Positions 5,209 through 57,838 of a stretch of DNA of 64,000 nt are shown piece by piece; the first letter of the stretch is position 1; every line of letters begins with the position of its first letter. Position numbers and translations under genes: made by a program. Source of the DNA: Bacillota bacterium (GTDB taxonomy: Bacteria > Bacillota > Clostridia > Christensenellales > UBA1242); contig WRCD01000005.1 of assembly GCA_009784185.1 (NCBI GenBank), positions 1,868 to 65,867 of the forward strand, read 5' to 3'. The notes beneath the pieces are model-generated. The model was not told where the DNA came from and did not search any database. It saw only the letters and a list, made by a program, of their open reading frames with translations.

Positions 5209-5225
5209 AATCTACCTCAAAAAAT

Positions 5226-5314
5226 AATTCCCCTTTAAGATAAAGGGTGCCCCGGACTAGGGGCGGGGTACATACCCCGTCAGCTTCGCTGCCACCCCTC
5301 TCTAGAGGGGAATT
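5226..5314. repeat. Family-A repeat, inverted pair forming a long palindrome
   Basis: AATTCCCCTTTAAGATAAAGGGTGCCCCGGACTAGGGGCGGGGTA faces TACCCCGTCAGCTTCGCTGCCACCCCTCTCTAGAGGGGAATT. It lies just downstream of the rpsT stop. Confidence 0.85.
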
Positions 5315-5335
5315 TTTATATTATATTTAAAACTT

Positions 5336-6527: not shown

Positions 6528-6590
6528 AATTCCCCTTCTCCAAAGGGGGTTAACGCCGTCAGGCGGACGGGGTAGCCGCCGCAGACGCAG
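6528..6590 (+). repeat. Family-A repeat (long form with GACGGGGTAGCCGCCGC module)
   Basis: AATTCCCCTTCTCCAAAGGGGGTTAACGCCGTCAGGCGGACGGGGTAGCCGCCGCAGACGCAG. It runs into the glmS ribosome-binding region. Confidence 0.85.
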
Positions 6591-6598
6591 GAGGCAAT

Positions 6599-8392
6599 AT
6601 GTGCGGAATTGTAGGATATGTGGGCAGCAAACTTGCCCTGCCCGTGCTTATGCGGGGACTTGCCAGCCTTGAATACCGCGGTTATGACTCGGCAGGAGTG
6701 GTTTTCAGCGAGCAGTCGACCCTTACCGTGTTTAAGCGCACCGGCAGAATCAACAGTTTAAACAACTATTTAAAAAACAAGCTTATAGCCTCCGGCTGCG
6801 GCATTGGGCATACACGCTGGGCAACTCACGGAGGACCAAGCAACACAAACAGCCACCCGCATACCGACGAGTTTGGTTCGGTGGCCGTTGTACATAACGG
6901 AATTATTGAAAATTATGCCGAGCTGAAAGCGTGCCTGATTGCTGAAGGTGTGGTTTTTAAGTCGGAAACCGACACTGAAGTAATTGCACATTTATTATCT
7001 AAATTTTATAAAGGCAATCCGCTTGATGCATTAATTAAAACCTGCAAGCTGCTGCACGGTTCATATGCGCTTGCAGCGTTGTTTAAAGCTGACAATGAGC
7101 AGATAGTTGCTGCCAGAAACGGCAGCCCGCTGGTAATTGGCATAGGTCAAAACGAAAACTTTATAGCCAGTGACGCCTTAGCGCTGCTGCCGTATACAAA
7201 CAGCTTTATAGAACTTAACAACAATCAATTCTCGGTCATAACTCAAAACTCTGTTAAAGTTTATGACCCAAGCGGTAAAAAGATTGCCGCAAATCCTAAA
7301 ACCGTTCAGCTGGATATTCAGCAAGCCGTCATGGGCAATTATCCGCATTATATGCTAAAAGAAATTAACGAGGTGCCCCGGTCCGTTACCGATACTCTGG
7401 CACAGCTAGAAAACAACAGCAGCCTGAATCATATTCCCGATTCGGTTTTTGCTCAGGCCAAGGACTTTCATATTGTAGCGTGCGGCACGGCGCTCAATGC
7501 CGGTCTTGTTTTGAAAGACTTACTGGCACGCAAACTCCGGTTAAACGTAACAAGCGATTTTGCCAGCGAATTCAGATATAAAAGCCCAAAACTGAGCAGA
7601 AAAAGCCTGTGCATATTCATTAGCCAAAGCGGCGAAACCGCAGATACCTTAGCCTGCGTACAACTTGCTAAAGAACATGGCGCAATAACCATTGCCGTAA
7701 CCAATGTGGTGGGCAGTACAATCTGCAGCATGGCCGATTATATTATTCCAACGCGTGCAGGCCCCGAAATTGCGGTTGCCAGCACAAAGGCATATTCGGC
7801 TCAGCTTACGGCAGGCTATTATATTGCATTGCATATGGCAAAACTCTTAAGAAAAAAGGCTCTTTCATACACCATAGCCGACTTGTATGCCGCGGCAAAC
7901 GTGCTGGAAGCCTTTCTTCCGGAACTAAATTTAAGCGAAACCGTAAGCCTTGTAAAGTCCCGTCAAAGCATATATTACATCGGACGCGGACTGGACTATT
8001 GCGTTGCGCTTGAAGGCTCGCTTAAACTGAAAGAAATTTCGTATATTCATTGCGAAGCCTTTCCCTGCGGCGAGCTTAAACACGGTTCGCTTGCGCTGAT
8101 TGAACCAAATACATTTGTGCTTTGCATCATAACTCAGGCAGACCTTATAGAAAAAAGCGTTAATGCCATACATGAAATAAAAGCGCGTGGCGGCAAGGTC
8201 ATACTGTTAACCCAGTTCCCCAGCCTGGACCAATACGCCGACATTACTGTTACGCTGCCGCAAGCCGCAGATGAACTTATGCCGCTTATCTCGGTGCTGC
8301 CGCTTCAGCTGCTGGCATACAAAACCGCCGCAGCCAAAGGCTTTGACCCCGATAAACCCAGAAACCTGGCCAAATCGGTAACGGTAGAATGA
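6599..8392 (+). CDS. glmS: Glutamine--fructose-6-phosphate aminotransferase
   Basis: MCGIVGYVG N-terminal Cys nucleophile, two SIS-type halves, and the C-terminal KPRNLAKSVTVE. Confidence 0.95.
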   Translation: MCGIVGYVGSKLALPVLMRGLASLEYRGYDSAGVVFSEQSTLTVFKRTGRINSLNNYLKNKLIASGCGIGHTRWATHGGPSNTNSHPHTDEFGSVAVVHNGIIENYAELKACLIAEGVVFKSETDTEVIAHLLSKFYKGNPLDALIKTCKLLHGSYALAALFKADNEQIVAARNGSPLVIGIGQNENFIASDALALLPYTNSFIELNNNQFSVITQNSVKVYDPSGKKIAANPKTVQLDIQQAVMGNYPHYMLKEINEVPRSVTDTLAQLENNSSLNHIPDSVFAQAKDFHIVACGTALNAGLVLKDLLARKLRLNVTSDFASEFRYKSPKLSRKSLCIFISQSGETADTLACVQLAKEHGAITIAVTNVVGSTICSMADYIIPTRAGPEIAVASTKAYSAQLTAGYYIALHMAKLLRKKALSYTIADLYAAANVLEAFLPELNLSETVSLVKSRQSIYYIGRGLDYCVALEGSLKLKEISYIHCEAFPCGELKHGSLALIEPNTFVLCIITQADLIEKSVNAIHEIKARGGKVILLTQFPSLDQYADITVTLPQAADELMPLISVLPLQLLAYKTAAAKGFDPDKPRNLAKSVTVE

Positions 8393-13631: not shown

Positions 13632-14888
13632 ATGGCTTTTTTTATTTTAGGTGCATATACCACTCCTATGATACCCGCAAGCACAATCACAGTTAGTGCA
13701 GATGCCCTAACACACAACGCAGTTACAATAAAAAGCCGGCTGCCCGCAAAAACCAAGCTTTGCGCCGTTGTAAAAGCAAATGCCTACGGGCATGGAGTAA
13801 AATTTGCCGTAACCACGCTGGAGCCGTACGCAGACTTTTTTGCCGCTGCCACCAACCATGAAGCACTGGAGGTGCGTAAACTAACCCAAAGGCCTACGCT
13901 GGTAATGGATTCGCTGAAAACATCTGCACTTGCTAAATGTTTAAAACAAAACATTCATATCTCTGTTTGCTCGCTAAACGAACTGAAAATACTGTTATCG
14001 GCTGCCAAAAAGGCAGGCACAACGGCTCAGGTTCATATCAAGCTAAACACCGGCATGAACAGGTTTGGGATTTCCGGCACAGATGAATTTAGCTGCTGCA
14101 TAAAACTCATTAAAAACCAGCCAACCCTTACACTGGCCGGTGTATATACTCATTTCGGTGCCGGTGATAACCCAAGCCACCCTCGCACGCACGGCCAAGC
14201 CAAGCGGTTTAAACAGTTTCTGGCAATACTCCCGCCGGAACTAAAACCAATAATACACGCTGCCAACACCGACACTGCGCTAAACTTCCCCCAATACGCA
14301 TTTGATATGGTTAGAGTTGGTATAGGATTATATGGGTATGGGTCAAGCACGAACCAAAATTCCCCTCCCTGGAGGGGTGGCGCAGAGCGCCGGGGTGGTT
14401 TTACCCCCGTACTTACTCTCACCTCCTACATCGCAGCCATCCAAACTGTAGCTAAAGGCCAATATATCGGCTACGGCACCGGCACAAGAGCAAAACGCAA
14501 TATGACTGTTGGCATAATCCCGCTTGGATACGCAGACGGCATTTCAAGGAGCTTATCCAACAAAGGCAAAGTAATTATATCCGGCTTACCCGCCCCTATA
14601 ATCGGCAATATCTGCATGGACAGTTTTACCGTTGACCTAACCGAAAATTCCCCAACTCCTGCGGGGTGGATGTCAAGCGTAGCGCAGACAGACGGGGTAG
14701 CCGCCGCCGAAGGCGGCGTAAAAACTTTGGCGGTCGGAACCCCCGTCACCATAATCGGCCCGGACCAAACCGCAGCCGACATAGCCGAAACACAAGGCAC
14801 TATAGCCTATGAAGTACTGACCGGTATTAATCATTGCAGAATAAATTATCAAACAAAAAATCCAAACAAAAAATCCCCTCTAAGTTAG
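13632..14888 (+). CDS. alr: Alanine racemase carrying two in-frame family-A repeat insertions
   Basis: PLP-lysine motif AVVKANAYGHG, then GIGLYGYG, PLGYADG, ICMDSFTVDLT and GTIAYEVLTGI. The ATG at 13632 lies inside the upstream terminator, so the true start may be the ATG at 13668. Confidence 0.85.
   Translation: MAFFILGAYTTPMIPASTITVSADALTHNAVTIKSRLPAKTKLCAVVKANAYGHGVKFAVTTLEPYADFFAAATNHEALEVRKLTQRPTLVMDSLKTSALAKCLKQNIHISVCSLNELKILLSAAKKAGTTAQVHIKLNTGMNRFGISGTDEFSCCIKLIKNQPTLTLAGVYTHFGAGDNPSHPRTHGQAKRFKQFLAILPPELKPIIHAANTDTALNFPQYAFDMVRVGIGLYGYGSSTNQNSPPWRGGAERRGGFTPVLTLTSYIAAIQTVAKGQYIGYGTGTRAKRNMTVGIIPLGYADGISRSLSNKGKVIISGLPAPIIGNICMDSFTVDLTENSPTPAGWMSSVAQTDGVAAAEGGVKTLAVGTPVTIIGPDQTAADIAETQGTIAYEVLTGINHCRINYQTKNPNKKSPLS
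14358..14400 (+). repeat. Family-A repeat inside alr, in frame
   Basis: AATTCCCCTCCCTGGAGGGGTGGCGCAGAGCGCCGGGGTGG, translated as NSPPWRGGAERRGG. Confidence 0.85.
14646..14725 (+). repeat. Family-A repeat (long form) inside alr, in frame
   Basis: AATTCCCCAACTCCTGCGGGGTGG..GACGGGGTAGCCGCCGCCGAAGGCGGCGTAAAAAC, translated as NSPTPAGWMSSVAQTDGVAAAEGGVKT. Confidence 0.85.
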
Positions 14889-16973: not shown

Positions 16974-17098
16974 AATTCCCCTTCTCCGAAGGGGTGGACG
17001 CGAAGCGGACGGGGTAGCCGCCGCCAAAGGCGGCGCAAAAACTCGGATTACCACAACCCCCGGCGCTCTGCGCCACCCCCTTAGCTTAAGGGGGAATT
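16974..17098. repeat. Family-A repeat, inverted pair (long form + short form)
   Basis: AATTCCCCTTCTCCGAAGGGGTGGACGCGAAGCGGACGGGGTAGCCGCCGCCAAAGGCGGCGCAAAAAC ... CGCCACCCCCTTAGCTTAAGGGGGAATT. Confidence 0.85.
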
Positions 17099-18786: not shown

Positions 18787-18871
18787 GTCACTGCGAGACT
18801 GTCCTCGGAGCCAGCAGACGAAGGAGCGTTAGCGACCCACCGTTGTTCCCTGTTACTTGTTCATTGTTCAC
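18787..18871 (+). repeat. Composite repeat: family-C-like end + GGAGCGnnAGCGACC module + heptamer array D1
   Basis: GTCACTGCGAG.., then GGAGCGTTAGCGACC, then GTTGTTC CCTGTTA CTTGTTC ATTGTTC AC. Confidence 0.75.
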
Positions 18872-18906
18872 TTAAAAAGCAGTGATTGTATCACTGCTTT
18901 TTACAA

Positions 18907-24282: not shown

Positions 24283-24447
24283 TATATTCCCATTTAAAGA
24301 GGGATGTCACCTGGTGACGGGATACAGTGTGCTAATAGTTTCCTCTATTTCACAAGCAATATTACCACAAAACCACGCAAAAGTCAAACTTATACGGAAA
24401 AAACCCGCAAACAAATATCAGATATCAAATGTCAGATATCAGTTGAA

Positions 24448-24575
24448 GGTCGCTGACGCTCCAAAAAGATGTGGCAGCGAAGTGACGGGGGATGTGATTT
24501 GCGAAGGCACCTAACAGACCACGTCAGCTTTGCTAGCCACATCTTTAGTTATTAAGTATTAAGTGCTTTTGGTTT
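24448..24575 (+). repeat. Family-B long hairpin (copy B1) with flanking modules; left arm of ~125-bp inverted repeat
   Basis: GGTCGCTGACGCTCC, then stem AAAGATGTGGCAGCGAAGTGACG, loop GGGGATGTGATTTGCGAAGGCACCTAACAGACC, stem CGTCAGCTTTGCTAGCCACATCTTT, then (ATTAAGT)n. Confidence 0.85.
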
Positions 24576-25205
24576 TACAATTACCTTAATCAGCGCAAAC
24601 AGCAGTGCCGCAAAAACCCCTACAAAAAATGCGCCCAGCATATATGTAACAAAGTCCTGAAACACCGTACATACCGCTACCATAAATATGCCCGTTATCA
24701 GGTTGCCCGCAAGCAGTGCTAATAAAGACTTCCAGAATCCTAAGCCCAGTATCAGCGCAACCAGGCAGCCGGCGTATATCCCGCTAAACGGCAGCGGCAG
24801 CGCAACAAACAGCACCACACCTATTATCTTATAAAAATCTATCATTGCCGGATTATGCTTTTTGCCGGCACGTTCTGCTGCCTTGCCCTCAATCTTGGTT
24901 TTGCTCTTACGCAACTTCTTGTCAAACTCATCAACTGCTTTTCTAAACAGCCTGGTATTGCGCAGCCGGTTCATAATCGGCAATCCTATTAATAGTATCA
25001 CCGGCATAATTACGCATGAACCAAGATACCCCCAAAAAAACGCCGCAAACGGGCTCATGGCATTAGCTCCCCAAATTTCGGCCGACATCCCAAACGGGAT
25101 AGCGGTATGAAACTCCAGCATAGGAAGCGCAGATACAATCATAACCGCAAGCCAGTTAGCCTGCCCGAATACCGAAACCAGAAACTCCGTAACCCACTCA
25201 AACAT
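24552..25205 (-). CDS. Small multidrug export protein family (Sm_multidrug_ex-like) membrane protein
   Basis: LPMLEFHTAIPFGM .. a K-rich loop .. ALPLPFSGIYAGCLVALILG fits the COG2426-type two-half topology. The track start at 25226 is a GTG inside the flanking repeat, so I prefer the ATG at 25205. Confidence 0.65.
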   Translation of the reverse strand: MFEWVTEFLVSVFGQANWLAVMIVSALPMLEFHTAIPFGMSAEIWGANAMSPFAAFFWGYLGSCVIMPVILLIGLPIMNRLRNTRLFRKAVDEFDKKLRKSKTKIEGKAAERAGKKHNPAMIDFYKIIGVVLFVALPLPFSGIYAGCLVALILGLGFWKSLLALLAGNLITGIFMVAVCTVFQDFVTYMLGAFFVGVFAALLFALIKVIVKPKALNT

Positions 25206-25227
25206 GCTGTATTCTATGCGGAGCACT

Positions 25228-25375
25228 TAATACTTAATACTTAATAACTAAAGATGCGGCTAGCAAAGCTGACGCGGTCTGTTAGGTGCCTTCGCAAATC
25301 ACATTCCCCGTCACTTCGCTGCCACATCTTTTTGGAGCGCCAGCGACCTATACTTGTTCCCTGTTCCCTGTTCAC
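25228..25375 (-). repeat. Family-B long hairpin (copy B2, inverted) + GGAGCGCCAGCGACC + heptamer array D2
   Basis: The reverse complement matches 24448-24575 with a few substitutions and one extra ATTAAGT unit. It ends in CTTGTTC CCTGTTC CCTGTTC AC. Confidence 0.85.
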
Positions 25376-25404
25376 TAAAAAATCACCCCGCAGGGTGATT
25401 TTTT
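25376..25404 (-). terminator. Terminator after ndk
   Basis: ATCACCC-cgca-GGGTGAT flanked by A and T runs, so it is bidirectional in form. Confidence 0.75.
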
Positions 25405-25812: not shown

Positions 25813-25825
25813 AATTTTTCTCCTT

Positions 25826-25869
25826 AATATTCCCCTCTGCAAGAGGGGCGCCCGAAGGGCGGGGTGTGG
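25826..25869 (+). repeat. Family-A repeat
   Basis: AATATTCCCCTCTGCAAGAGGGGCGCCCGAAGGGCGGGGTGTGG. Confidence 0.85.
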
Positions 25870-25921
25870 TTAATGGGTTTATTGTAACAGATTTCTAGCC
25901 TGTTGGCAAGCAAAAGAATGT

Positions 25922-25962
25922 AATTCCCCTAGCCACGGAGGGGTGCCCGAAGGGCGGGGTGG
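25922..25962 (+). repeat. Family-A repeat
   Basis: AATTCCCCTAGCCACGGAGGGGTGCCCGAAGGGCGGGGTGG. Confidence 0.85.
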
Positions 25963-25973
25963 TTTAAAACAAA

Positions 25974-33838: not shown

Positions 33839-33857
33839 GTCTGCTCCTTTCCGTATC

Positions 33858-33981
33858 AATTCCCCTTTATGAAGGGGTGGATGCGCCATAGGCGCAGACG
33901 GGGTAGCCGTCACCAAAGGTGGCGCAAAAGCTTTTTCACATACCCCGCCCTTCGGGCACCCCTTTATCTTAAAGGGGAATT
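33858..33981. repeat. Family-A repeat, inverted pair (long + short form)
   Basis: AATTCCCCTTTATGAAGGGGTGGATGCGCCATAGGCGCAGACGGGGTAGCCGTCACCAAAGGTGGCGCAAAAGC ... TACCCCGCCCTTCGGGCACCCCTTTATCTTAAAGGGGAATT. Confidence 0.85.
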
Positions 33982-33995
33982 ACAACGGGAATTTT

Positions 33996-35689: not shown

Positions 35690-35772
35690 GCGGATGTGGC
35701 GAAATTGGCAGACGCGCCAGACTTAGGATCTGGTGGGCAACCGTGGGGGTTCAAGTCCCTCCATCCGCACCA
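35690..35772 (+). tRNA. tRNA-Leu (TAG)
   Basis: Type-II tRNA GCGGATGTGGCGAAATTGGCAGACGC.., anticodon loop CTTAGGA, long variable arm, CCA. Confidence 0.9.
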
Positions 35773-35889
35773 ACATAGTCCTAAGGTTGGAGGACTTGAA
35801 CGGGCAAGGGCGCTGCCGGCGGCAGATGAAGCCCGCAGCCCAGGCGTGAAAGTGCCGAAGGCACGGAGCAAGTCCCTCCATCCGCACCA
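35773..35889 (+). other. Structured ~96-nt insert followed by an exact 21-nt duplicate of the tRNA-Leu 3' end
   Basis: CAAGTCCCTCCATCCGCACCA occurs at 35752-35772 and again at 35869-35889. An inverted partial copy GGAGGACTTGAAC at 35789-35801 can pair with the second copy. Internal hairpins are CTGCC-ggc-GGCAG and GTGCC-gaa-GGCAC. Confidence 0.7.
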
Positions 35890-36050
35890 ATGCAGTTATA
35901 AGGTGTATGACCGCAGGCGGTCATACAACCCGTCGGCGCTCGCAAACGAGCACTGCGTGCCCGCAATTTTTGAAAATCTGTTTTTGTCCGCAAGCGCCCA
36001 AAAGCAAATTTTCACAATTTGCGCGCTTCGCGTTGGATTTGCTCGCTTCT

Positions 36051-36708: not shown

Positions 36709-37941
36709 ATGTACATGAACAACACTAAAATTGCATCAGCCAGACCCAGATACACTAAAAGCACACTTGCACTGGGTGCAAGCGTTTTAGATTATTGCGG
36801 AGTAAAAACAAAACTGCCTAAGCTTGGCAGGGTTAGGTCTGCTCTGAAGAAAAACTACAAAAACGTTGTGTTTTTAATTTTGGACGGCCTCAATACATTA
36901 AGTCTGCAGGAGCTTCTGCCGGCCGATTCTCTTCTCAGAAAAAACCTGAAAGGCAGCCTGACATCGGTTTTCCCGTCTACAACCGCGTGCGGTTTAACCA
37001 CTTTGTTTACGGCAGGCTACCCTGCTGCGAATGGCTGGCTGGGGCAAAAGATGTACATAGAGCAACTAGATAAGGTTATTGACATATACAAAAACACCTG
37101 CGCATACACCGGAGTCAGCCTTAAAGACGATGACTATTACGAGAGCTATCTGCCGCCTGCTACCATATTTTCTCAAATTGAAGCCATGCAGAAACCACAA
37201 ATAAAAATACATACCCTTACCCCGCAAAAAACCCGTAACATTGCCGAAAACAACTATTACTACTCCGACATGGCCGAAATGTATACGGTGCTTAACAAAA
37301 TGACCCGGCAAAACGGCAGAAAAGCAATTATTGCGTATGCACCGCATTTGTCTAAAGCAATGAGCACCCATGGCACAGCTTCGGGCCAAGCCGAAGCAGT
37401 TCTGCAAGAACATGAACTGTATTTAGCCGAACTGATGGAAAAAGCCGGTGATACATTGTTTATTGTGTCGTCCGGCCACGGAATGATTAATATCCAAAAC
37501 AACATCCATTTAGAAGACTATCCGGAAATCTGTGCTACATTCAACAGACCTCCGTCCGTTTGCAGCCGCGCAATCAGCTTTGGAATAAACAAGTTAAGCC
37601 GCAAACAATTTGCGCGTCTGTTTAACCACCACTTCAGCACGGATTTTAAACTGTACACTGCAAAACAAATAGTTGCCGGCGGCTTGCTTGGTAAAGATGC
37701 TTGTCCGTGTCTGGATTTACTTATAGGCGATTTTATTGCAGTTGCAAAAGCCAACTCTGCAATGCATTACAAAACACCCAAAGGGGTTGAGCCGAAAATT
37801 ACAATAGCCTCCAGCGGCGGACTCTCCAAACAGGAAATGCTTTTACCGTTAATAATTTTTGGAAAGAAAAAGAAATCCAGTAAAAAGAAAGCGCCTCAAA
37901 ATTCCCCTTCCCTGCGAAGGGGTGGCAAGCCGAAGGCTTGA
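36709..37941 (+). CDS. Alkaline-phosphatase-superfamily phosphodiesterase / nucleotide pyrophosphatase-like protein
   Basis: VVFLILDGLNTLSL and SVFPSTTACGLTTLFTAGYPAANGW give the metal-binding Asp and nucleophile Thr region. The last ~15 aa (NSPSLRRGGKPKA) are read from a family-A repeat. Confidence 0.7.
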   Translation: MYMNNTKIASARPRYTKSTLALGASVLDYCGVKTKLPKLGRVRSALKKNYKNVVFLILDGLNTLSLQELLPADSLLRKNLKGSLTSVFPSTTACGLTTLFTAGYPAANGWLGQKMYIEQLDKVIDIYKNTCAYTGVSLKDDDYYESYLPPATIFSQIEAMQKPQIKIHTLTPQKTRNIAENNYYYSDMAEMYTVLNKMTRQNGRKAIIAYAPHLSKAMSTHGTASGQAEAVLQEHELYLAELMEKAGDTLFIVSSGHGMINIQNNIHLEDYPEICATFNRPPSVCSRAISFGINKLSRKQFARLFNHHFSTDFKLYTAKQIVAGGLLGKDACPCLDLLIGDFIAVAKANSAMHYKTPKGVEPKITIASSGGLSKQEMLLPLIIFGKKKKSSKKKAPQNSPSLRRGGKPKA

Positions 37942-37970
37942 CGGGGTAGCCGCCGCCAAACGCGGCGCAA
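37900..37970 (+). repeat. Family-A repeat (long form) overlapping the 3' end of the phosphodiesterase ORF
   Basis: AATTCCCCTTCCCTGCGAAGGGGTGGCAAGCCGAAGGCTTGACGGGGTAGCCGCCGCCAAACGCGGCGC. Confidence 0.85.
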
Positions 37971-38012
37971 AAAAAGCAGCCATAGCTGCTTTTTTTATTT
38001 TGCTCAAAATTA

Positions 38013-39690: not shown

Positions 39691-40146
39691 ATGGATAAAG
39701 AAATAGAATCACTTCCGCCGGAAGAAGTTATAGTCAAGCTAAAAAAGCTGATTAAAATAATTGAGCATGCTCAGGCTGACCTTGGCAGCGAAATTACACA
39801 TGCCCAGGCACGCATTATCTTCCCCATCTGGCGCGACGGCAAAGGCTACACAATTGTTGAACTGGCTAAAGCAGGCAGTGTTACCAAAGGCCTGGTATCG
39901 CGCACCATTGCCGACCTTGAAGCCAAAGGCTATGTTGAGCGCCAAAAGGAGTCCGCCAATCAGGACAGAAACTATAAGATAGTTCTTACTCCCAAAGCTC
40001 ATGCGCTTGCCCGGAAGCACAAAGCAAAAATGCAAAAAGTTTCCGGCAAATGGAACGGCAAGTTGACAAAAGACGATTTTGAAACATTTATAAGAGTATT
40101 AAACATCATAACCGACATAGAATATGGAAAGGAGCAACCATGTTAG
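39691..40146 (+). CDS. MarR-family transcriptional regulator
   Basis: Winged-helix region YTIVELAKAGSVTKGLVSRTIADLEAKGYVERQKESANQDRNYKIVLT. I rejected the track start at 39625 because it lies upstream of the promoter. Confidence 0.75.
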   Translation: MDKEIESLPPEEVIVKLKKLIKIIEHAQADLGSEITHAQARIIFPIWRDGKGYTIVELAKAGSVTKGLVSRTIADLEAKGYVERQKESANQDRNYKIVLTPKAHALARKHKAKMQKVSGKWNGKLTKDDFETFIRVLNIITDIEYGKEQPC

Positions 40147-42584
40147 TATTAGAAAACATTGTAAAAGAATATGCGGCAGGCACCAGCAAGATAGAAGCGC
40201 TGGCGGGCGTCAGTCTCTCGTTCAGGAAAAACGAGTTTGTTTCAATTCTTGGCCCCAGCGGCTGCGGAAAGACCACCATGCTGAATATTGTTGGCGGCCT
40301 TGACCGCTACACCAGCGGCGACCTGATTATAAACGGCAAAAGCACAAAAGACTTTAAGGCATACGAGTGGGACGCATACAGGAACCGCTCCATCGGTTTT
40401 GTTTTCCAGAGCTATAATCTGATTCCGCACTTATCTGTGCTCGGCAATGTTGAAATGGCGCTTACCCTGTCCGGAATATCAAAGCACGAGCGTAAAGAGC
40501 GTGCAACCGCTGCCCTGGCTGATGTTGGCTTAACAGACCAACTGCACAAACGCCCCAACCAGCTGTCGGGCGGACAGATGCAGCGTGTGGCAATTGCACG
40601 TGCACTTGTAAACAATCCTGACATTATCTTAGCGGATGAGCCGACCGGCGCACTGGACAGCACCACCAGCGTACAGATAATGGAGCTGTTAAAAGTTGTA
40701 GCCGAAAAGCGGCTTGTAATAATGGTAACTCACAACGGTGACCTTGCCGAACAATACAGCACACGCATCATTAAGCTGCTTGACGGCAAACTGCAATCAG
40801 ACAGCAATCCGATTGTGGAAGAACCTGTCATTGCGAGCAATTCTATTCCGGATTCAAACGAAGCAATCCCAAAGATTGGTGCTTCTAACCGCGAGATTGC
40901 TTCGTCTGTTGGCGCTGCAGGCCCGTCTCGCAATGACAAGGCAAAACCCAAGCGCAACAAAACCAGTATGTCATACATAACTGCCCTTTCATTAAGCCTA
41001 AAAAACCTGCTTACCAAAAAGGGGCGTACCTTTATTACCGCCTTTGCGGGCAGCATTGGCATAATTGGCGTAGCATTGGTATTGGCGGTTAGCTTTGGGT
41101 TTAACGCCTACATAGCAAGCGCACAAACCGACACTCTGGCCGAGATGCCTATTCAGGTAAACCGTTCGGTAATGGACTTTAGAAGCTATATGAACCATGA
41201 AGAAACCACCCAGAATCCGAGCGACGCTATTTACCCGTATACTCCTCCGCCAAACAACACCCATCACAACGTTATAACCCAAGGCTATGTTGACCACGTA
41301 AACGACCTTGATTCGGCATTATATACAGATATTCGTATGCGATACGGCCTGGAAATGAACTTCGTTGCAGAAGCGGGCACAAACTATAACTCCTTCAGAA
41401 TGCGCGAACTATCAAGCAGAAACACCGAAAACGAGCGCATTTACGAAGTGCTTGCAGGCAACTGGCCTGCGGCAGCAAATGAGCTTGTGCTGGTATTGGA
41501 CAGCAACAATCTGATAATGTCCGACACCCTTAACCAATTAGGAATAGCCAACACCTCCGGAACCCCGTTTGCTTTCAGCGAAGTTCTTGGTAAAAACACT
41601 TACAGACTTATACCCAACGATGCATTCTATCAGACCTCGGGCGGCGGGTTTGCTCCCAAAACCGTTGATGGGGCATTATATGCGCATACTTCGGCTGTAC
41701 CGCTTACAATTGTCGGTGTGGTAAAAATAAAGAACGCCGACGCGGGCGGAATGCTGGACATGATGGATATGGTTTCCGGCTCGTTTAATTCATCAACCGG
41801 GCTTGCTTTCTCCCCTATGCTTACACAGGCCAGGCTGGCGGCAGAAGCAACTTCCAATATGGCAATTGCGGCTACTACAACTCACCTTAACAATTTTCTT
41901 TTAGAAAGAAGAATTTCGTTTGGCGAAAGCACCGTAACCTTTCCGGCGGGCTCTGTGATTATCCCTGCTCTTTCATATATGAAATTAGACCAACAGAGGC
42001 AATTCGGAGCCAACACCACTCCCGCAAGCATACGCATTTTTCCGAAAGACTTTGACAGCAAAACAATAATTAAAGAGCATCTAGCTGCGTGGAACGCGAG
42101 CAAAGCCGAAGCCGACCAGATACTCTTCTCCGATTTAGCCGAAACCATTACCAACATGATGGCTACGGTAGTAGACGCAATTTCATATGTATTAATTGCG
42201 TTTGCCGCAATAAGTTTGGTAGTATCCAGCATAATGATTGGCATAATTACTTATGTATCGGTAATTGAGCGGACCCGCGAAATTGGAGTGCTGCGAGCCC
42301 TTGGCGGAAGAAAGAAAGATATAAGGCGCGTGTTTAACGCCGAAACCCTGATAATCGGATTTACGGCGGGCGTAATTGGAGTTGCGGTTACACTTATACT
42401 TACGCTGCCGATTAACCTGATTATAAACTTCTATGTACCGGAGCTGCATAATGTGGCGCAAATGGCATGGTGGCATCCGATTGCCTTAATCGGCGGAAGC
42501 ATGGTGCTCACATTTATTGCGGGGCTGTTCCCGGCAAACGCAGCAGCAAAAAAAGACCCGGTTGTAGCATTACGAACCGAATAA
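40140..42584 (+). CDS. Fused ABC transporter ATPase + FtsX/MacB-type permease, with an in-frame family-C repeat in the linker
   Basis: [24 protein letters not shown] and [11 protein letters not shown], then the FtsX-like TM region [26 protein letters not shown] and the C-terminal [18 protein letters not shown]. The ATG overlaps the marR stop. Confidence 0.85.
40826..40937 (+). repeat. Family-C element (12-nt terminal inverted repeats TGTCATTGCGAG) inside the ABC transporter gene
   Basis: TGTCATTGCGAG...TCAAACGAAGCAATCCCAAAGATTGGTGCTTCT...GATTGCTTCG...CTCGCAATGACA. Translated as [37 protein letters not shown]. Confidence 0.85.
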
Positions 42585-45527: not shown

Positions 45528-45563
45528 TTACCTGTTCTCTGTTCCCTGTTCCCTGTTCCTTGT
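45528..45563 (+). repeat. Heptamer array D3 (overlaps the last codons of the TVP38-family gene)
   Basis: TTA CCTGTTC TCTGTTC CCTGTTC CCTGTTC CTTGT. Read on the minus strand it gives ..TRNREQGTENR*. Confidence 0.8.
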
Positions 45564-46304: not shown

Positions 46305-46336
46305 ATGTATTTATAATATCCTAATTTTGCTTCTAT

Positions 46337-46468
46337 AATTCCCCTCTATAAGAGGGGTGGATACGACCGAGTAAAACGAGAGAGTAGACGGGGTGTGGCA
46401 GTAAAGCAATCAGTTTGAGCAACCACACCCCGTCGGCTGCGCCGCCACCCCTCTTATAGAGGGGAATT
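46337..46468. repeat. Family-A repeat, inverted pair with ~50-nt centre
   Basis: AATTCCCCTCTATAAGAGGGGTGGATACGACCGAG..GACGGGGTGTGGCAG...CCACACCCCGTCGGCTGCGCCGCCACCCCTCTTATAGAGGGGAATT. Confidence 0.85.
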
Positions 46469-46484
46469 TTCGTTTCATATCTGC

Positions 46485-49539: not shown

Positions 49540-49555
49540 AAGTTACCTCCATATA

Positions 49556-49673
49556 AATTCCCCTCTACAAGAGGGGTGCCACGGAGTGGCGGGGTGTGGT
49601 TGGTTGAAAAGTCTTTGCGCAGCCACACCCCGTCAAACCTGACGGTTTGCCACCCCTCTTATAGAGGGGAATT
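49556..49673. repeat. Family-A repeat, inverted pair
   Basis: AATTCCCCTCTACAAGAGGGGTGCCACGGAGTGGCGGGGTGTGG ... CCACACCCCGTCAAACCTGACGGTTTGCCACCCCTCTTATAGAGGGGAATT. Confidence 0.85.
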
Positions 49674-49680
49674 ATTTACA

Positions 49681-51006: not shown

Positions 51007-51027
51007 AGATGTACTCCTTAATCAAAT

Positions 51028-51088
51028 AATTCCCCTTTTATGAAGGGGTGGCAGCCGCAGGCTGACGGGGTAGCCGCCCGAAGGGCGC
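51028..51088 (+). repeat. Family-A repeat (long form)
   Basis: AATTCCCCTTTTATGAAGGGGTGGCAGCCGCAGGCTGACGGGGTAGCCGCCCGAAGGGCGC. Confidence 0.85.
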
Positions 51089-51178
51089 ATAACCTTATGA
51101 AATCATACCAAATTAAACTACAAAACACAATTAAAACATCTTATAAAATATTCCATTCCACCGAAGTTCCGTTATCAT

Positions 51179-51222
51179 ATACCCCGCCGCTTCGTGGCAC
51201 CCCTTTATCTTAAAGGGGAATT
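51179..51222 (-). repeat. Family-A repeat (reverse), overlapping the 3' end of the feoB-like ORF
   Basis: ATACCCCGCCGCTTCGTGGCACCCCTTTATCTTAAAGGGGAATT. Confidence 0.85.
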
Positions 51223-52593
51223 TTTGCACTTTCCACAGTTCGTACATTTATGCCGAGTTATCAGCATAAACACCGCAACCGTCACCAACAGAATTATAAA
51301 CGCCGCAAACAGCAGCCCGGCAAAATCCCCGTTAAAAGCCGCACACGCAATTTTATATGACAGGAACGAAAACAAATACGCCGCAGCAAACTGTATGCCC
51401 ATCGCCACCCATGCAAGCTGCTTCCCAACCTGACGCCGGAGACTTACAATAGCCGCAATGCAAGGGATACTAAGCAATACAAAAACCAAAAACGACACTA
51501 CAGCTTCAGGCGTAAAACTTACGCTCAACACGCCCAGACAAGACACAATGGCCTCCTTAGCAACCAAGCCGCAAAGCATTGCGGATACCGCTCCCCAGTT
51601 TCCCCACCCGAGCGGAACAAAAACAGGTGCCAGAATCATGCCTATTTGCTGCAGCATACTTATTTCCAAATCCGGGTCGGAGATGTAAACAAACCCGAAA
51701 GTAAAGTTTTGCAACACCCAAACAAGAACCGTAAGACTTAACACAACTGTTCCGACCCTTTCCGTAAAGTGACGGGCAGCATCGGCAGCCGATTTTGCCA
51801 CAGCTTTTATACTGGGCAACTTGTATGGCGGCACGCTGTCATTGCGAGTCCGCCCAACAGAGACGGGCAAGCGAAGCAATCCTTCGGACAGAAGCACCAA
51901 TCTTTGGGATTGCTTCGTTTGAAGGAGTATCAGGTCCGTCTCGCAATGACAGTTCGCCACACTTCTTAAGAGAAGCTTGTCCATTATCCACGCCAACAAC
52001 ATGGCAACCGCAACTCCCAGCAGATACAATCCAAAAACCAGCACCCAATTGCCCGCCCCAAAAAACGCACCGCCCAGCACCACATAAACCGGCAGTTTTG
52101 CACTGCAGGACATATATGGTGTAAGTATTGCGGTTTTGATTCTTACACTTTTATTTTCAATATTCTTTACTGTAGGAATTGCCGTTGTAGTACAGCCAAA
52201 CCCCATAAGTAAGGTAAACGCACTTTGCCCGCTTAATCCAACTTTAGAAAAAAACTTATCAAAAACGCGGGCAACCCGTGCCAGATACCCTGTCTGCTCC
52301 AAAACGCCAAGACAAACAAACAACAGCACAATCTGCGGCAGAAATGCAATAACCATTCCCGCCCCTCCAACCACCGCATCACGAACCAGCGCAATTATCC
52401 AGATTGGAGCGTTTATTGCAATAACCAGGTCAACCAGATACCCGCCAACAATCCTAACCACCACAAATTCAAAGCAGTACGACAAAAACGCCCCAAACGG
52501 CCCGAATGTAATAAAAAATATAATAAGCATTACCAACAAGAATATGGGCAACGCTAAATACTTGTTTAGGAATATCTTGTCGGGATTAATCAC
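51205..52593 (-). CDS. feoB: FeoB-type transporter, membrane (Gate/nucleoside-recognition) portion only, with an in-frame family-C repeat
   Basis: LEQTGYLARVARVFDKFFSKVGLSGQSAFTLLMGFGCTTTAIP .. LTPYMSCSAKLPVYV is the FeoB core. The ORF has no G-domain, and the 78-nt gap to nrdR leaves no room for one upstream. Confidence 0.7.
   Translation of the reverse strand: MINPDKIFLNKYLALPIFLLVMLIIFFITFGPFGAFLSYCFEFVVVRIVGGYLVDLVIAINAPIWIIALVRDAVVGGAGMVIAFLPQIVLLFVCLGVLEQTGYLARVARVFDKFFSKVGLSGQSAFTLLMGFGCTTTAIPTVKNIENKSVRIKTAILTPYMSCSAKLPVYVVLGGAFFGAGNWVLVFGLYLLGVAVAMLLAWIMDKLLLRSVANCHCETDLILLQTKQSQRLVLLSEGLLRLPVSVGRTRNDSVPPYKLPSIKAVAKSAADAARHFTERVGTVVLSLTVLVWVLQNFTFGFVYISDPDLEISMLQQIGMILAPVFVPLGWGNWGAVSAMLCGLVAKEAIVSCLGVLSVSFTPEAVVSFLVFVLLSIPCIAAIVSLRRQVGKQLAWVAMGIQFAAAYLFSFLSYKIACAAFNGDFAGLLFAAFIILLVTVAVFMLITRHKCTNCGKCKNSPLR
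51837..51951 (-). repeat. Family-C element inside the feoB-like gene (core inverted relative to the copy at 40826)
   Basis: TGTCATTGCGAG ... CTCGCAATGACA. The reverse complement shares the identical 33-nt core TCAAACGAAGCAATCCCAAAGATTGGTGCTTCT. Translated as [38 protein letters not shown]. Confidence 0.85.
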
Positions 52594-52622
52594 CCATTAG
52601 TGTATTTGAGGCTCCACAATAA

Positions 52623-52664
52623 AATTCCCCTCTATAAGAGGGGTGCCCGAAGGGCGGGGTGTGG
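52623..52664 (+). repeat. Family-A repeat
   Basis: AATTCCCCTCTATAAGAGGGGTGCCCGAAGGGCGGGGTGTGG. Confidence 0.85.
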
Positions 52665-52671
52665 ATAAAAG

Positions 52672-53160
52672 TCACTGTTCTTTGTTACCTGTTCCTTGTT
52701 CACTGAATATCATATTCTCAAACTCATTAAGGAAACTTACAAAGTTGTTTATATCCTTAAACTTCCTGTATACACTGGCAAACCGCACGTAAGCAACTTC
52801 ATCCAGTTTTTTCAGCGCATCCATAACCGCCTCGCCAATTATGCTGGACTTTACCTCCTGCTCCAAGCCGTTGTGTATCTGCTTTTCAATGTCGTTTACA
52901 ATTTTATCAATCTGCCCCATTGTAATCGGACGCTTTTCGCAAGCCTTAATAATACCATGCTTAATCTTGTCACGCTCAAACGGCTGACGCGAACCATCGG
53001 ATTTAATAACCAAAATCGGTACCGTCTCCACAGTCTCATATGTGGTAAACCGCTTCCCGCAAGTTAAGCACTCGCGCCTCCGCCTTATTGAGTTCTGTTC
53101 ATCGGTTGCGCGTGAATCAATAACCTTACTGTCATCATGCCCGCAATAAATACATTTCAT
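52672..53160 (-). CDS. nrdR: Transcriptional repressor NrdR (zinc ribbon + ATP-cone)
   Basis: [42 protein letters not shown]. The last ~10 aa (EQGTGNKEQ) are read from heptamer array D4. Confidence 0.9.
52673..52703 (+). repeat. Heptamer array D4
   Basis: CACTGTTC TTTGTTA CCTGTTC CTTGTTC AC. Confidence 0.8.
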
Positions 53161-53225: not shown

Positions 53226-53344
53226 AATTCCCCTTACTTTACTTTCGCCACACCCCGCCACTAAAAGGGGCAGTCCGGAGTGTCGGGGGATGTGATTTGC
53301 GAAGGCACCTAACAGACCCTGACAGCTCCGGACTGCCCCTTTTG
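53226..53344 (+). repeat. Degenerate family-A unit followed by family-B long hairpin (copy B3)
   Basis: AATTCCCCTTACTTT..CACCCCGCC, then stem AAAAGGGGCAGTCCGGAGTGTCG, loop GGGGATGTGATTTGCGAAGGCACCTAACAGACC, stem CTGACAGCTCCGGACTGCCCCTTTT. Confidence 0.85.
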
Positions 53345-54982: not shown

Positions 54983-55094
54983 AATTCCCCCTTGAGCCAA
55001 GGGGGTGGCACGAAGTGCCGGGGGTTGTGGTAAATTAACATAACACAACCCTCCCCGCTAGGCTAGCGGTACTCCCTTAGCTTAAGGGAGAATT
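54983..55094. repeat. Family-A repeat, inverted pair
   Basis: AATTCCCCCTTGAGCCAAGGGGGTGGCACGAAGTGCCGGGGGTTGTGG ... CCTCCCCGCTAGGCTAGCGGTACTCCCTTAGCTTAAGGGAGAATT. Confidence 0.85.
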
Positions 55095-55151
55095 TTAGCG
55101 TGTGCTATAATCGTTTTGCGACTTCCCTCTTTTATGCTATATTAAATTAAA

Positions 55152-55913
55152 ATGGATTATTCGTTAGACCAAAACAAAAAAGGCAGCTGGTTCACCTCAG
55201 CCGACAGCCTTAAAATAGTTGCAATTACCGCAATGCTTATAGACCACATTGCGTGGTCGTTTGTTACGCTTGAATCCGCAGGCGGATTTATTATGCACTT
55301 TATCGGCCGCATGACAATTCCGATAATGTGCTTCTTTATAGCCCAAGGATATTTGCGCACAAGCAACCTAAAAAAATACGCGCTCCGGTTGTTGATATTT
55401 GCTCTAATTGCCCACATACCGTTTGTTATGTGGCAGACCGGCGGATTTCCGTTAACCATTGTCGGATTCCTGCAAAGCTTTTTTAATACAAGTGTAATGT
55501 GGCCGCTGTTTCTGGGGTTAATTGCCCTGCATATTATAAACAAGCGCCATTGGAACTATTTTCTCCGCCTGTTTTTCATAGTTGTTTTTCTTGTACTTTC
55601 GTTTGCGGGAGACTGGACCATATGGGCGGTGCTGTGGATTATAGTTTTTGGAACCCTGCACAAACACAAGGTATGGCAGTTTGTATGCTTTGCCGGAATT
55701 GCGCTTGTTTATATTTTGTTGCATATAGTCTCCCCCGCTGTTGCGGGCGAAACGTGGGCATGGCATTTGTATACTCTGGGGCTGTTTGCGCCAATACTTC
55801 TGCTATGGTTCTACAACGGCAGCCGCAAACCGAGCAAACATCTGAAGTACGCGTTCTACATCTTCTACCCCGCCCACCTGCTGATAATAGCGGTGATAGC
55901 GTTATTAGTTTAG
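55152..55913 (+). CDS. traX: TraX-family membrane protein
   Basis: SADSLKIVAITAMLIDHIAWSF plus about seven TM helices fits the TraX signature. It lies on the opposite strand between sigE and sigG. Confidence 0.75.
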   Translation: MDYSLDQNKKGSWFTSADSLKIVAITAMLIDHIAWSFVTLESAGGFIMHFIGRMTIPIMCFFIAQGYLRTSNLKKYALRLLIFALIAHIPFVMWQTGGFPLTIVGFLQSFFNTSVMWPLFLGLIALHIINKRHWNYFLRLFFIVVFLVLSFAGDWTIWAVLWIIVFGTLHKHKVWQFVCFAGIALVYILLHIVSPAVAGETWAWHLYTLGLFAPILLLWFYNGSRKPSKHLKYAFYIFYPAHLLIIAVIALLV

Positions 55914-55916
55914 CCA

Positions 55917-56043
55917 AAGGGGTATGCGGAGTTACGGGGGATGTGTTTTGCGAAGGCACGTAACAGACCCTGTAAGCTCCGCGTACCCCTTTAGGAGCAA
56001 AGCGACCCTTAGTTGTTACTTGTTACCTGTTCCTTGTTCCCTG
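55917..56043 (+). repeat. Family-B long hairpin (copy B4) + GGAGCAAAGCGACC + heptamer array D5
   Basis: Stem AAAGGGGTATGCGGAGTTACG, loop GGGGATGTGTTTTGCGAAGGCACGTAACAGACC, stem CTGTAAGCTCCGCGTACCCCTTT, then GTTGTTA CTTGTTA CCTGTTC CTTGTTC CCTG. Confidence 0.85.
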
Positions 56044-56766: not shown

Positions 56767-56779
56767 AACGCCCCCTTTT

Positions 56780-56909
56780 CAGGTAACAAGTAACAGGTAA
56801 CAGGGAACAACTATTGGTCGCTACGCTCCGATATTAATTGGAACGAAGTGACCCACCGTTGTTACCTGTTCCCTGTTACCTGCTCCCTGTTCCCTGCTCC
56901 CTGTTCCCC
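56780..56909. repeat. Inverted heptamer arrays D6/D7 with central GGTCGCTACGCTCC module
   Basis: CAGGTAACAAGTAACAGGTAACAGGGAACAAC .. GGTCGCTACGCTCC .. GTGACCCACC GTTGTTA CCTGTTC CCTGTTA CCTGCTC CCTGTTC CCTGCTC CCTGTTC CCC. Confidence 0.85.
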
Positions 56910-57741: not shown

Positions 57742-57838
57742 GCTTAAATTATAAATTATTTAACACAGTTTTGATTGTGCAAAAAAACCACTATCCCCAC
57801 TATTTTTGTATAATCGGAGCGCAAGCGACCCCACAAAA

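Follow-up and report, generated by a model that had tools for sequence, protein, structure and literature searches.

Long hairpins with a near-fixed apex and co-varying arms at gene ends of an uncultured Firmicute: a candidate REP/MITE-like repeat

The analysed DNA is a stretch of 64,000 nucleotides of the Bacillota bacterium assembly GCA_009784185.1 (contig WRCD01000005.1, positions 1,868 to 65,867 of the forward strand), hereafter the 64-kb window, in which four copies of a long hairpin, named Family B (B1 to B4), were found, all of them between genes or at gene ends. The host is an uncultured spore-forming Firmicute (a Bacillota metagenome-assembled genome, MAG), the window is part of the 112.9-kb metagenome contig ENA ERZ27257304 k141_1590144, the gene calls of which were used, and the genes of this contig are chromosomal housekeeping and sporulation genes, such as hisS, ndk, nrdR, spoIIGA-sigE-sigG, spoIVA and the ftsA/ftsZ division cluster. 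B1 stands 5 nt past the stop codon of the minus-strand gene Sm_multidrug_ex, upstream of promoter-like sites for the next gene, and B2 is located at the other end of the same gene, with the NDK terminator (25378-25403) on one side and the Sm_multidrug_ex start codon (25205) on the other. B3 follows 2 nt past the stop codon of a PRC-barrel gene (53346), upstream of the nrdR promoter-like site at 53221-53193, and B4 begins 2 nt past the stop codon of a TraX gene (55911-55913), between the convergent TraX and sigE-like genes.

The core of Family B (GGGGATGTGATTTGCGAAGGCACCTAACAGACC, 33 nt) occurs four times in the window, with 0 matches in 100 shuffles, and the four copies named in the preliminary description are present at their sites, each folding as one hairpin of ~80 nt. 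The minimum free energies (MFE) of the RNA are -45.8, -46.1, -61.9 and -54.5 kcal/mol for B1, B2, B3 and B4, respectively, with folding z-scores of -6.9, -6.1, -8.9 and -8.2, and DNA parameters predict identical structures for all copies. The conserved segment had been described as an open loop of 34 nt with B4 as the sole variant; it measures 33 nt, differs at one position (G->A) in B2 too, and itself folds into GG/CC, a 2x2 GA/GA loop, UGU/ACA, a 4x4 GAUU/CCUA loop, UGC/GCA and a GAAG tetraloop. The single bulge described for the 3' arm is found at the same place in all copies, but the bulged base is a G on the core-sense strand (..CA-G-CU..) and a C on the opposite strand only, and B1 and B2 carry an additional bulged A plus a G.A or G.G mismatch. 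The A/T runs mentioned beside the hairpins were also seen, with A-runs on the 5' side and T-runs on the 3' side of every hairpin, stem bases of the form AAAG.../...CTTT, and A/T-flanked stems that stand where terminators are expected. In an independent Logan assembly of SRR10512951, one contig (L074) repeats the B3 arm and breaks within the shared core, so that the assembly graph treats the core as a sequence of multiple copies, as expected for many genomic copies. An assembly artefact is ruled out, as the hairpins lie mid-contig and the B3 arm was found in this second assembly.

Differential patterns of change were observed for the apex and the arms. Three unrelated stem sequences, and with them a complete stem replacement, had been proposed at first; this was overstated, as B1 and B2 represent a single clone, the stem aligns without gaps over its inner ~13 bp and is homologous there in all copies, 10 of the 18 pairs of the stem helix are invariant, and the outer ~10 bp alone are hard to align, where B3 and B4 nonetheless have AAAGGGG in common. 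The 59-nt segment made up of the core, the inner 13 bp and the bulge aligns ungapped among B1/B2, B3 and B4 with a mean column identity of 90%, and 97.6% of the cells in this alignment are paired, while sliding the partner strand by 1-3 columns lowers the pairing to 37-45%. Five of the 21 pairs changed on both sides and two further pairs switch between G-C and G.U, which bears out the earlier claim that the fold is kept through sequence change. The homologous inner arms of B1 and B3 differ at ~40% of positions, whereas the core shows 0-2 differences in 33 nt. Judged by these alignments, the stems of Family B are homologous and changed on both sides together, with the apex almost fixed.

A strand asymmetry was also observed. 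All allowed non-Watson-Crick pairs are G.U on the core-sense strand and none is A.C, and this confinement of the wobble pairs to one strand fits a single-stranded form. In each of the four copies the core-sense strand exceeds its complement in stability, with a difference of 7-12 kcal/mol under RNA parameters and of 3-9 kcal/mol under DNA parameters, and the asymmetry tracks how the core is oriented and not which way the host transcribes. B2 and B4 have their core-sense strand transcribed (B4 from TraX), B1 and B3 do not, and no promoter-like site was detected upstream on the core-sense strand for any of the four copies.

B1 and B2 belong to a 118-nt unit that is present twice, in inverted orientation, around Sm_multidrug_ex, and the 4 differences between the two units in 118 positions are distributed evenly among flank, core and arm. 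The right end of the B1 unit encodes the last four codons (ALNT) and the stop codon (24552-24554) of Sm_multidrug_ex. The homology of this gene product to its counterpart in the relative L072 (51% protein identity) covers residues 1-213 and ends exactly at the start of the repeat unit, and the L072 homologue closes with ten unrelated residues. Upstream of Sm_multidrug_ex, L072 has a normal terminator, a spacer and AGGAG, whereas the spacer in the window consists of the ndk terminator, a heptamer array and the B2 unit, with no recognisable Shine-Dalgarno sequence or promoter at 25206-25231, behind the B2 unit. The open reading frame (ORF) is intact, and read-through from ndk may be required for its expression. 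The C-terminal codons have given way to the B1 unit and the leader to the B2 unit, neither of which is present in L072, and this is an insertion into otherwise conserved sequence of the kind by which miniature inverted-repeat transposable elements (MITEs) are recognised. As ndk and Sm_multidrug_ex are adjacent in L072 as in the window, Sm_multidrug_ex is native to its position, and a composite transposon carrying this gene was rejected, its place beside NDK being ancestral. A 118-nt unit that is inverted around a conserved gene and supplies its stop codon argues for DNA-level duplication rather than a host RNA gene, and the comparison with L072 shows that the copies arise by DNA-level insertion or duplication at gene boundaries.

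The motif, which the preliminary description had not recognised, matched no Rfam family: only tRNAs were reported at gathering thresholds, and E-value mode up to 10 around all copies gave no credible match on the hairpins, the best overlap being a miRNA model with 16 bits against a 90-bit threshold. Signal recognition particle (SRP) RNA, Y-RNA, ribozyme and riboswitch were rejected, given the missing Rfam signal and the multiple copies in mixed orientation. The exact core pattern had 0 matches in IMG/VR, in the JGI metagenomes and in the GTDB species genomes. Patterns relaxed to 17-18 bases, run on GTDB and JGI, yielded 56 and 6 matches, compared with ~70 expected by chance for 17 specified bases in 596 Gb by our own arithmetic, and all 62 were discarded as homologs, since the covariance model gave them <=22 bits against 85-88 bits for the true copies. 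BLAST of B3 against phage and plasmid collections returned no match, the covariance model detected no further copies over the available contig sequence and the relatives' loci, and an additional 9 kb of the contig held no extra Family B copy. The relatives compared were L072 together with L008 and L009 (53% and 49% identity of SpoIIGA, respectively). L008 and L009 preserve the order spoIIGA-sigE-sigG-PRC-nrdR with short spacers that carry no B hairpin, and the hairpins are missing from the syntenic loci of L008, L009 and L072. A literature search found no conserved-loop/variable-stem repeats or heptamer repeats for Clostridia. Within the reach of the methods used, Family B appears confined to this organism.

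Taken together, it is somewhat probable that Family B represents a lineage-restricted palindromic repeat of ~80 nt, non-coding and resembling MITEs and repetitive extragenic palindromic (REP) sequences, which is probably handled as a single-stranded hairpin with its apex recognised in trans. A selfish or self-duplicating repeat is argued for by the occurrence in one lineage, the overwriting of gene ends, the nested repeats, the mixed orientation and the lack of a promoter-like site of its own. Family B is thus best regarded as an unusual form of a known selfish repeat type, not as a new RNA gene, and it gives no evidence for a new widespread RNA class. One 118-nt unit overwrote the 3' end of Sm_multidrug_ex and its inverted twin the 5' leader of that gene. 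What is preserved would be the long-hairpin fold of one strand, the fixed bulge and the apex sequence (a G-box followed by the UGC-GAAG-GCA mini-hairpin), and the stem sequence would be free to vary provided that both arms change together. From this preservation of one-strand fold, bulge and apex, and from the precedent of REP doublets forming hairpins (REPINs), we infer recognition of a single-stranded hairpin, most likely single-stranded DNA (ssDNA), by a trans-encoded enzyme that would read apex and shape. Enzymes of the HUH type, namely REP-associated tyrosine transposases (RAYTs) and those of the IS200 type, read REP hairpins. Of the selected RNA or ssDNA structure suggested in the preliminary description, the single-stranded hairpin is fitted by the one-strand wobbles, and the host-selected RNA gene is not supported, the evidence pointing to a DNA-level repeat. 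The stem replacement with its preserved bulge and loop had moreover been set there against decaying MITE termini; compensatory changes on the two hairpin sides are common in mobile REPINs (PMC3116915), so that covariation alone does not exclude a mobile element, and REPINs are thought to move as ssDNA (PMC3116915).

Table 1. Positions of the Family B hairpins, the duplicated unit and the other repeats in the 64-kb window.
Feature	Position	Strand	Description
B1 hairpin	24465-24546	+ (core-sense on +)	core 24488-24520
B2 hairpin	25250-25331	- (core-sense on -)	core 25276-25308, one mismatch (G->A)
B3 hairpin	53263-53343	+	core 53286-53318; outer stem perfect, 18/18
B4 hairpin	55916-55992	+	core 55937-55969; two mismatches, both inside the 4x4 internal loop
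118-nt duplicated unit with B1	24447-24564	+	GGTCGCTGACGCTCC module, hairpin, TATTAAG heptamers; 97% complementary to 25232-25349
Inverted copy of the 118-nt unit with B2	25232-25349	-	occupies the spacer upstream of Sm_multidrug_ex
Sm_multidrug_ex gene (PF06695, NCBI MCL2540450.1)	24552-25205	-	bracketed by B1 and B2
GGTCGCTGACGCTCC module abutting B1	24448-24462	+	5' side of B1
GGTCGCTGACGCTCC module, other sites adjoining B copies	25334-25348; 55994-56007	- (25334-25348)	abuts B2 (25334-25348); inverted, 3' side of B4 (55994-56007)
GGTCGCTGACGCTCC module without B hairpin	18823-18837, 56816-56829, 56841-56854, 57816-57830		
GGTCGCTTTGCTCC module and heptamer array beside B4	55994-56043	-	homologue of the B2 flank; lies on the other side of the core
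Palindrome, ~125 nt	56776-56900		heptamer array, GGTCGCTACGCTCC, unrelated 11-nt centre, GGAACGAAGTGACC, inverted heptamer array; between sigE and spoIIGA
Heptamer array (ATATCAG) beside the B1 unit	24412-24442		
Heptamer arrays near B1/B2	24550-24564, 25225-25246; 25355-25373		TATTAAG (first two); TGTTCCC (third)
Heptamer arrays elsewhere	45531-45563, 52676-52701, 18843-18873, 56009-56043, 56783-56810, 56860-56908		CTGTTCC-type, ATATCAG, TATTAAG
Family A, full copies	5223-5320, 46334-46470, 49553-49675, 54985-55097		long palindromes, ends AAAATTCCCC...GGGGAATTTT
Family A, half copies (examples of many)	25825-25873, 25920-25968, 52620-52668, 33855-33990, 51024-51080		
Family A variant	14691-14726, 17008-17043, 33897-33932, 37940-37975, 6566-6601, 51064-51090		GACGGGGTAGCC, then GC-rich palindrome, GAAG/AAAG loop
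Family C palindromic repeat, ~113 nt	40826-40940; 51855-51953	+ (40826-40940)	within ABC/FtsX gene 40140-42584; within 'Gate' transporter gene 51205-52530

In the REP/MITE-like reading, Family B is one member of a modular hairpin-repeat set that fills the intergenic space of the host (positions in Table 1). This space is crowded with repeats that the relatives are without, for instance AATTCCCC, with 26 occurrences in the window and none in L008 and L009. The modules of the second hairpin family, Family A, consist of GGGG(T)G, a mini-hairpin and then CGGGGT..., and 22 of them were compiled by eye and all confirmed in the window. The stem of the Family A mini-hairpin is hypervariable yet self-complementary in the aligned modules, with a loop that is mostly GAAG-like (GAAG/GGAG-type), and about half of the whole-module MFE predictions give the mini-hairpin cleanly. 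The 5' arm and core start of B1 are identical to the Family A copy at 5270-5295 at 24 of 26 positions (E=0.005), and the A-box CGGGGTATGTGA at 33936-33950 is similar to the opening 11 nt of the B core (CGGGGGATGTGA). The hidden Markov model (HMM) of Family A is weak on the B1 and B2 arms (E=0.55 and 3.6) and leaves the B3 and B4 arms unmatched. Modules and design shared between Family B and Family A are hence partly supported by these matches, and Family B is not a proven derivative of Family A. The GGTCGCT..GCTCC module adjoins B1, B2 and B4, and B2 and B4 have homologous module and heptamer flanks with the core pointing opposite ways relative to them, which would agree with an insertion into a symmetric target as well as with an inversion between the arms. 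The palindrome between sigE and spoIIGA could be an 'empty' version of the context of the B hairpins. Heptamer arrays abut three of the four B copies; tandem arrays of this kind are a typical feature of heterocystous cyanobacteria and would not be expected in a Firmicute.

Other observations concern the repeats and genes around Family B. Tandem heptamer arrays stand at many gene boundaries, and some of them encode the last ~10 codons of ORFs, namely of a VTT-domain gene and of nrdR (162 aa vs 153 aa in relatives). Some Family A copies lie directly upstream of ribosome-binding sites within apparent operons, and the GTAG beside the palindrome in the GACGGGGTAGCC variant recalls the REP sequences of RAYT transposases. 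The TraX-family gene (55293-55913) sits between sigE and sigG, which adjoin each other in L008 and L009, and it has B4 at its 3' end and a full Family A element (54985-55097) at its 5' side. Family C, with the ends TGTCATTGCGAG...CTCGCAATGACA, lies inside two unrelated ORFs without stop codons, in the same orientation to the gene and in different reading frames, and resembles the Rickettsia palindromic elements; a peptide search with a chimeric query from the in-frame Family C repeat gave no match. The 3' end of the tRNA at 35690-35769 (CAAGTCCCTCCATCCGCACCAA, 35749-35770) is repeated ~100 nt downstream at 35868-35890, at the end of a seven-tRNA cluster, and may be what is left of the site at which an element once integrated. 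Gene ends are rewritten by the repeats, which add C-terminal tails and stop codons, have eliminated one ribosome-binding site and probably provide terminators; the repeats also break short-read assemblies, which matters for the annotation and binning of such genomes.

Several points weigh against the REP/MITE-like reading, and its main weakness is the sample, as only four copies were examined, representing three independent lineages. No match to a transposase, RAYT, integrase or reverse-transcriptase family (Pfam) was found among the genes listed for ~85 kb of the contig, no direct repeat that would mark a target-site duplication (TSD) was found where the hairpins or the 118-nt units join the adjacent sequence, and no filled-versus-empty polymorphism was seen within the species. 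The strand asymmetry comprises ~4-5 independent wobble events only and is suggestive and no more, and the absence of the hairpins from relatives as distant as ~50% protein identity is weak evidence, supportive and not decisive. The near-invariant core beside ~40% divergent inner arms is also compatible with a function selected in the host or with a very recent spread confined to the core, and three of the four copies occupy precisely the spot where a terminator is required and none besides them is present. This last point leads to a host-selected cis-acting RNA, which would be a bidirectional terminator, a 3'-end stabiliser or a protein-binding site on a variable stem and which we consider improbable. 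Such an RNA would account for B1, B3 and B4 lying 2-5 nt past stop codons, before the next promoter-like site or between convergent genes, for the tracts of 5 U (UUUUU) after B1 and 4 U after B3 on the transcribed strand (B2 and B4 have only 3 U), for the compensatory changes that preserve the pairing, and for a core that is nearly invariant with its internal-loop bases included. On the other hand, only about half of the copies have their core-sense strand transcribed, so that no loop-specific RNA function could hold for all of them, and the wobble pairs follow the core and not transcription. B2 lies in a 5' leader downstream of the terminator that NDK already has, the B1 unit cut a coding sequence short, the hairpins are missing from relatives that share the gene order, and Rfam offers no match. 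The consensus terminator scan, too, left the Family B hairpins unflagged, and an 80-nt hairpin is far above the length of usual terminators. As the stems carry A-/T-tracts and directly follow stop codons, it is probable that the copies additionally terminate transcription or stabilise 3' ends, an activity that is treated as a by-product and not as the reason for the existence of the family.

An alternative that would retain mobility is a nested micro-element, in which only the centre moves (the 33 nt, or a 55-59-nt core with inner stem) and enters the apex of existing palindromes, the outer stems then belonging to the targets, analogous to the small dispersed repeats (SDRs) of cyanobacteria. 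One core on three different outer stems suggests this, as do outer stems that look like the ordinary A-tract/GC-stem/T-tract terminators of the genome right behind stop codons, the flip of the core against the GGTCGCT..GCTCC flank between B2 and B4 as for a symmetric target, the module palindrome with an unrelated 11-nt centre at 56776-56900 and the heptamer arrays adjoining B copies. It is nevertheless unlikely, because the inner 13 bp and the bulge are homologous yet five compensatory pairs apart, which requires co-evolution of the stem regardless, B1 and B2 show a copied unit larger than the hairpin, no core-less palindrome with a B-type stem was found in the window, and the terminators at the orthologous sites of relatives are absent or unrelated. 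A broader proposal, which we hold to be doubtful, is that Family B and the far more abundant Family A reflect an undescribed hairpin-handling system, in which an enzyme would read the apex/G-box and bulge on ssDNA, stems would be re-copied arm-to-arm, the orientation could flip, as in B2 versus B4, and the unit would be perhaps ~35-60 nt; if true, this mobile unit would be the Firmicute counterpart of the unexplained cyanobacterial SDRs. Arm copying without any recognition was considered as well, that is, a passive palindrome whose arms are kept complementary by templated repair or by template switching in replication and whose core is conserved by youth. Mirrored substitutions and apparently mirrored 1-2-nt differences in arm length (B1, B3, B4) would come about more easily in this way, and the even spread of the 4/118 differences between B1 and B2 agrees with it. 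It is very improbable all the same, as arm-to-arm correction should erase the bulge and the wobbles, while the bulged G stands at the same place in all lineages and the wobbles are one-stranded, and as a young family is incompatible with ~40% inner-stem divergence beside 0-6% in the core. Integron-like attC recombination sites marking gene cassettes share with Family B a structured site of variable sequence, a fixed extrahelical base and a position directly 3' of ORFs. Their defining features fail: the stem base lacks RYYYAAC/GTTRRRY core sites, the ~85 kb of annotated sequence contains no integrase, the flanking genes are housekeeping genes that keep their synteny, B1 and B2 are inverted and not in a same-orientation cassette array, and the order of conservation (stem base conserved, tip variable in attC) is the reverse of that of Family B, so that an attC identity is effectively refuted.

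The REP/MITE-like reading can be set beside the systems already described. Bacterial interspersed mosaic elements (BIMEs) and BOX elements likewise combine several short hairpin motifs in modular fashion, occur within operons as well as at the ends of genes, and are presumed to influence termination and mRNA stability as a side effect. They differ in that there is no sequence similarity, the modules here being G-boxes, hypervariable mini-hairpins (GAAG-type loops) and heptamer arrays, and in that the modules here also extend into coding sequence. With regard to MITEs, neither a TSD nor a parent insertion sequence (IS) element was found for Family B in the contig, in which no IS element of any kind was seen. 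As a working analogy, attC sites illustrate recognition by shape, that is, of a single-stranded variable hairpin with fixed extrahelical bases.

A likeness in context is offered by the SDRs, for which a conserved unit of 21-27 nt and signs of recent insertion are characteristic. Elhai et al., in 2008, reportedly described SDRs of Nostoc and other cyanobacteria as short conserved units beside or inside tandem heptamer arrays and small palindromes, and some SDR families are said to be defined there by a shared fold with compensatory changes. Compared by description only, Family B also has a short conserved unit in varied contexts, with heptamer arrays at three of the four copies. It differs in belonging to another phylum and in that the B core is always at the apex of a long hairpin with an inner stem that is homologous in all copies. 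SDR5 inserts precisely within HIP1 (PMC4390886). If the reading of Family B is right, it would extend the very small nested repeats tied to heptamer arrays, which were earlier known mainly from cyanobacteria, to a second phylum.

REPs and REPINs are, like Family B, short extragenic imperfect palindromes that are lineage-specific and multi-copy (four in 64 kb for Family B) and form long hairpins; compensatory changes keep the Family B hairpin as well, and a strand-specific hairpin would be the presumed substrate. No RAYT gene is present among the genes listed for ~85 kb of the contig, and there is no GTAG-type tetranucleotide at the foot of Family B, GTAG being found beside the palindrome in the local Family A variant GACGGGGTAGCC, e.g., at 14691-14726. 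The arms of REPINs are conserved and the spacer at their tip is variable, whereas in Family B the tip is conserved and the arms vary. If the reading is true, the genome would be predicted to encode elsewhere a single-strand nucleic-acid enzyme specific for shape plus apex, and the fixed apex, co-varying arms, fixed bulge and one-strand wobble bias of Family B would make it the mirror image of REPINs.

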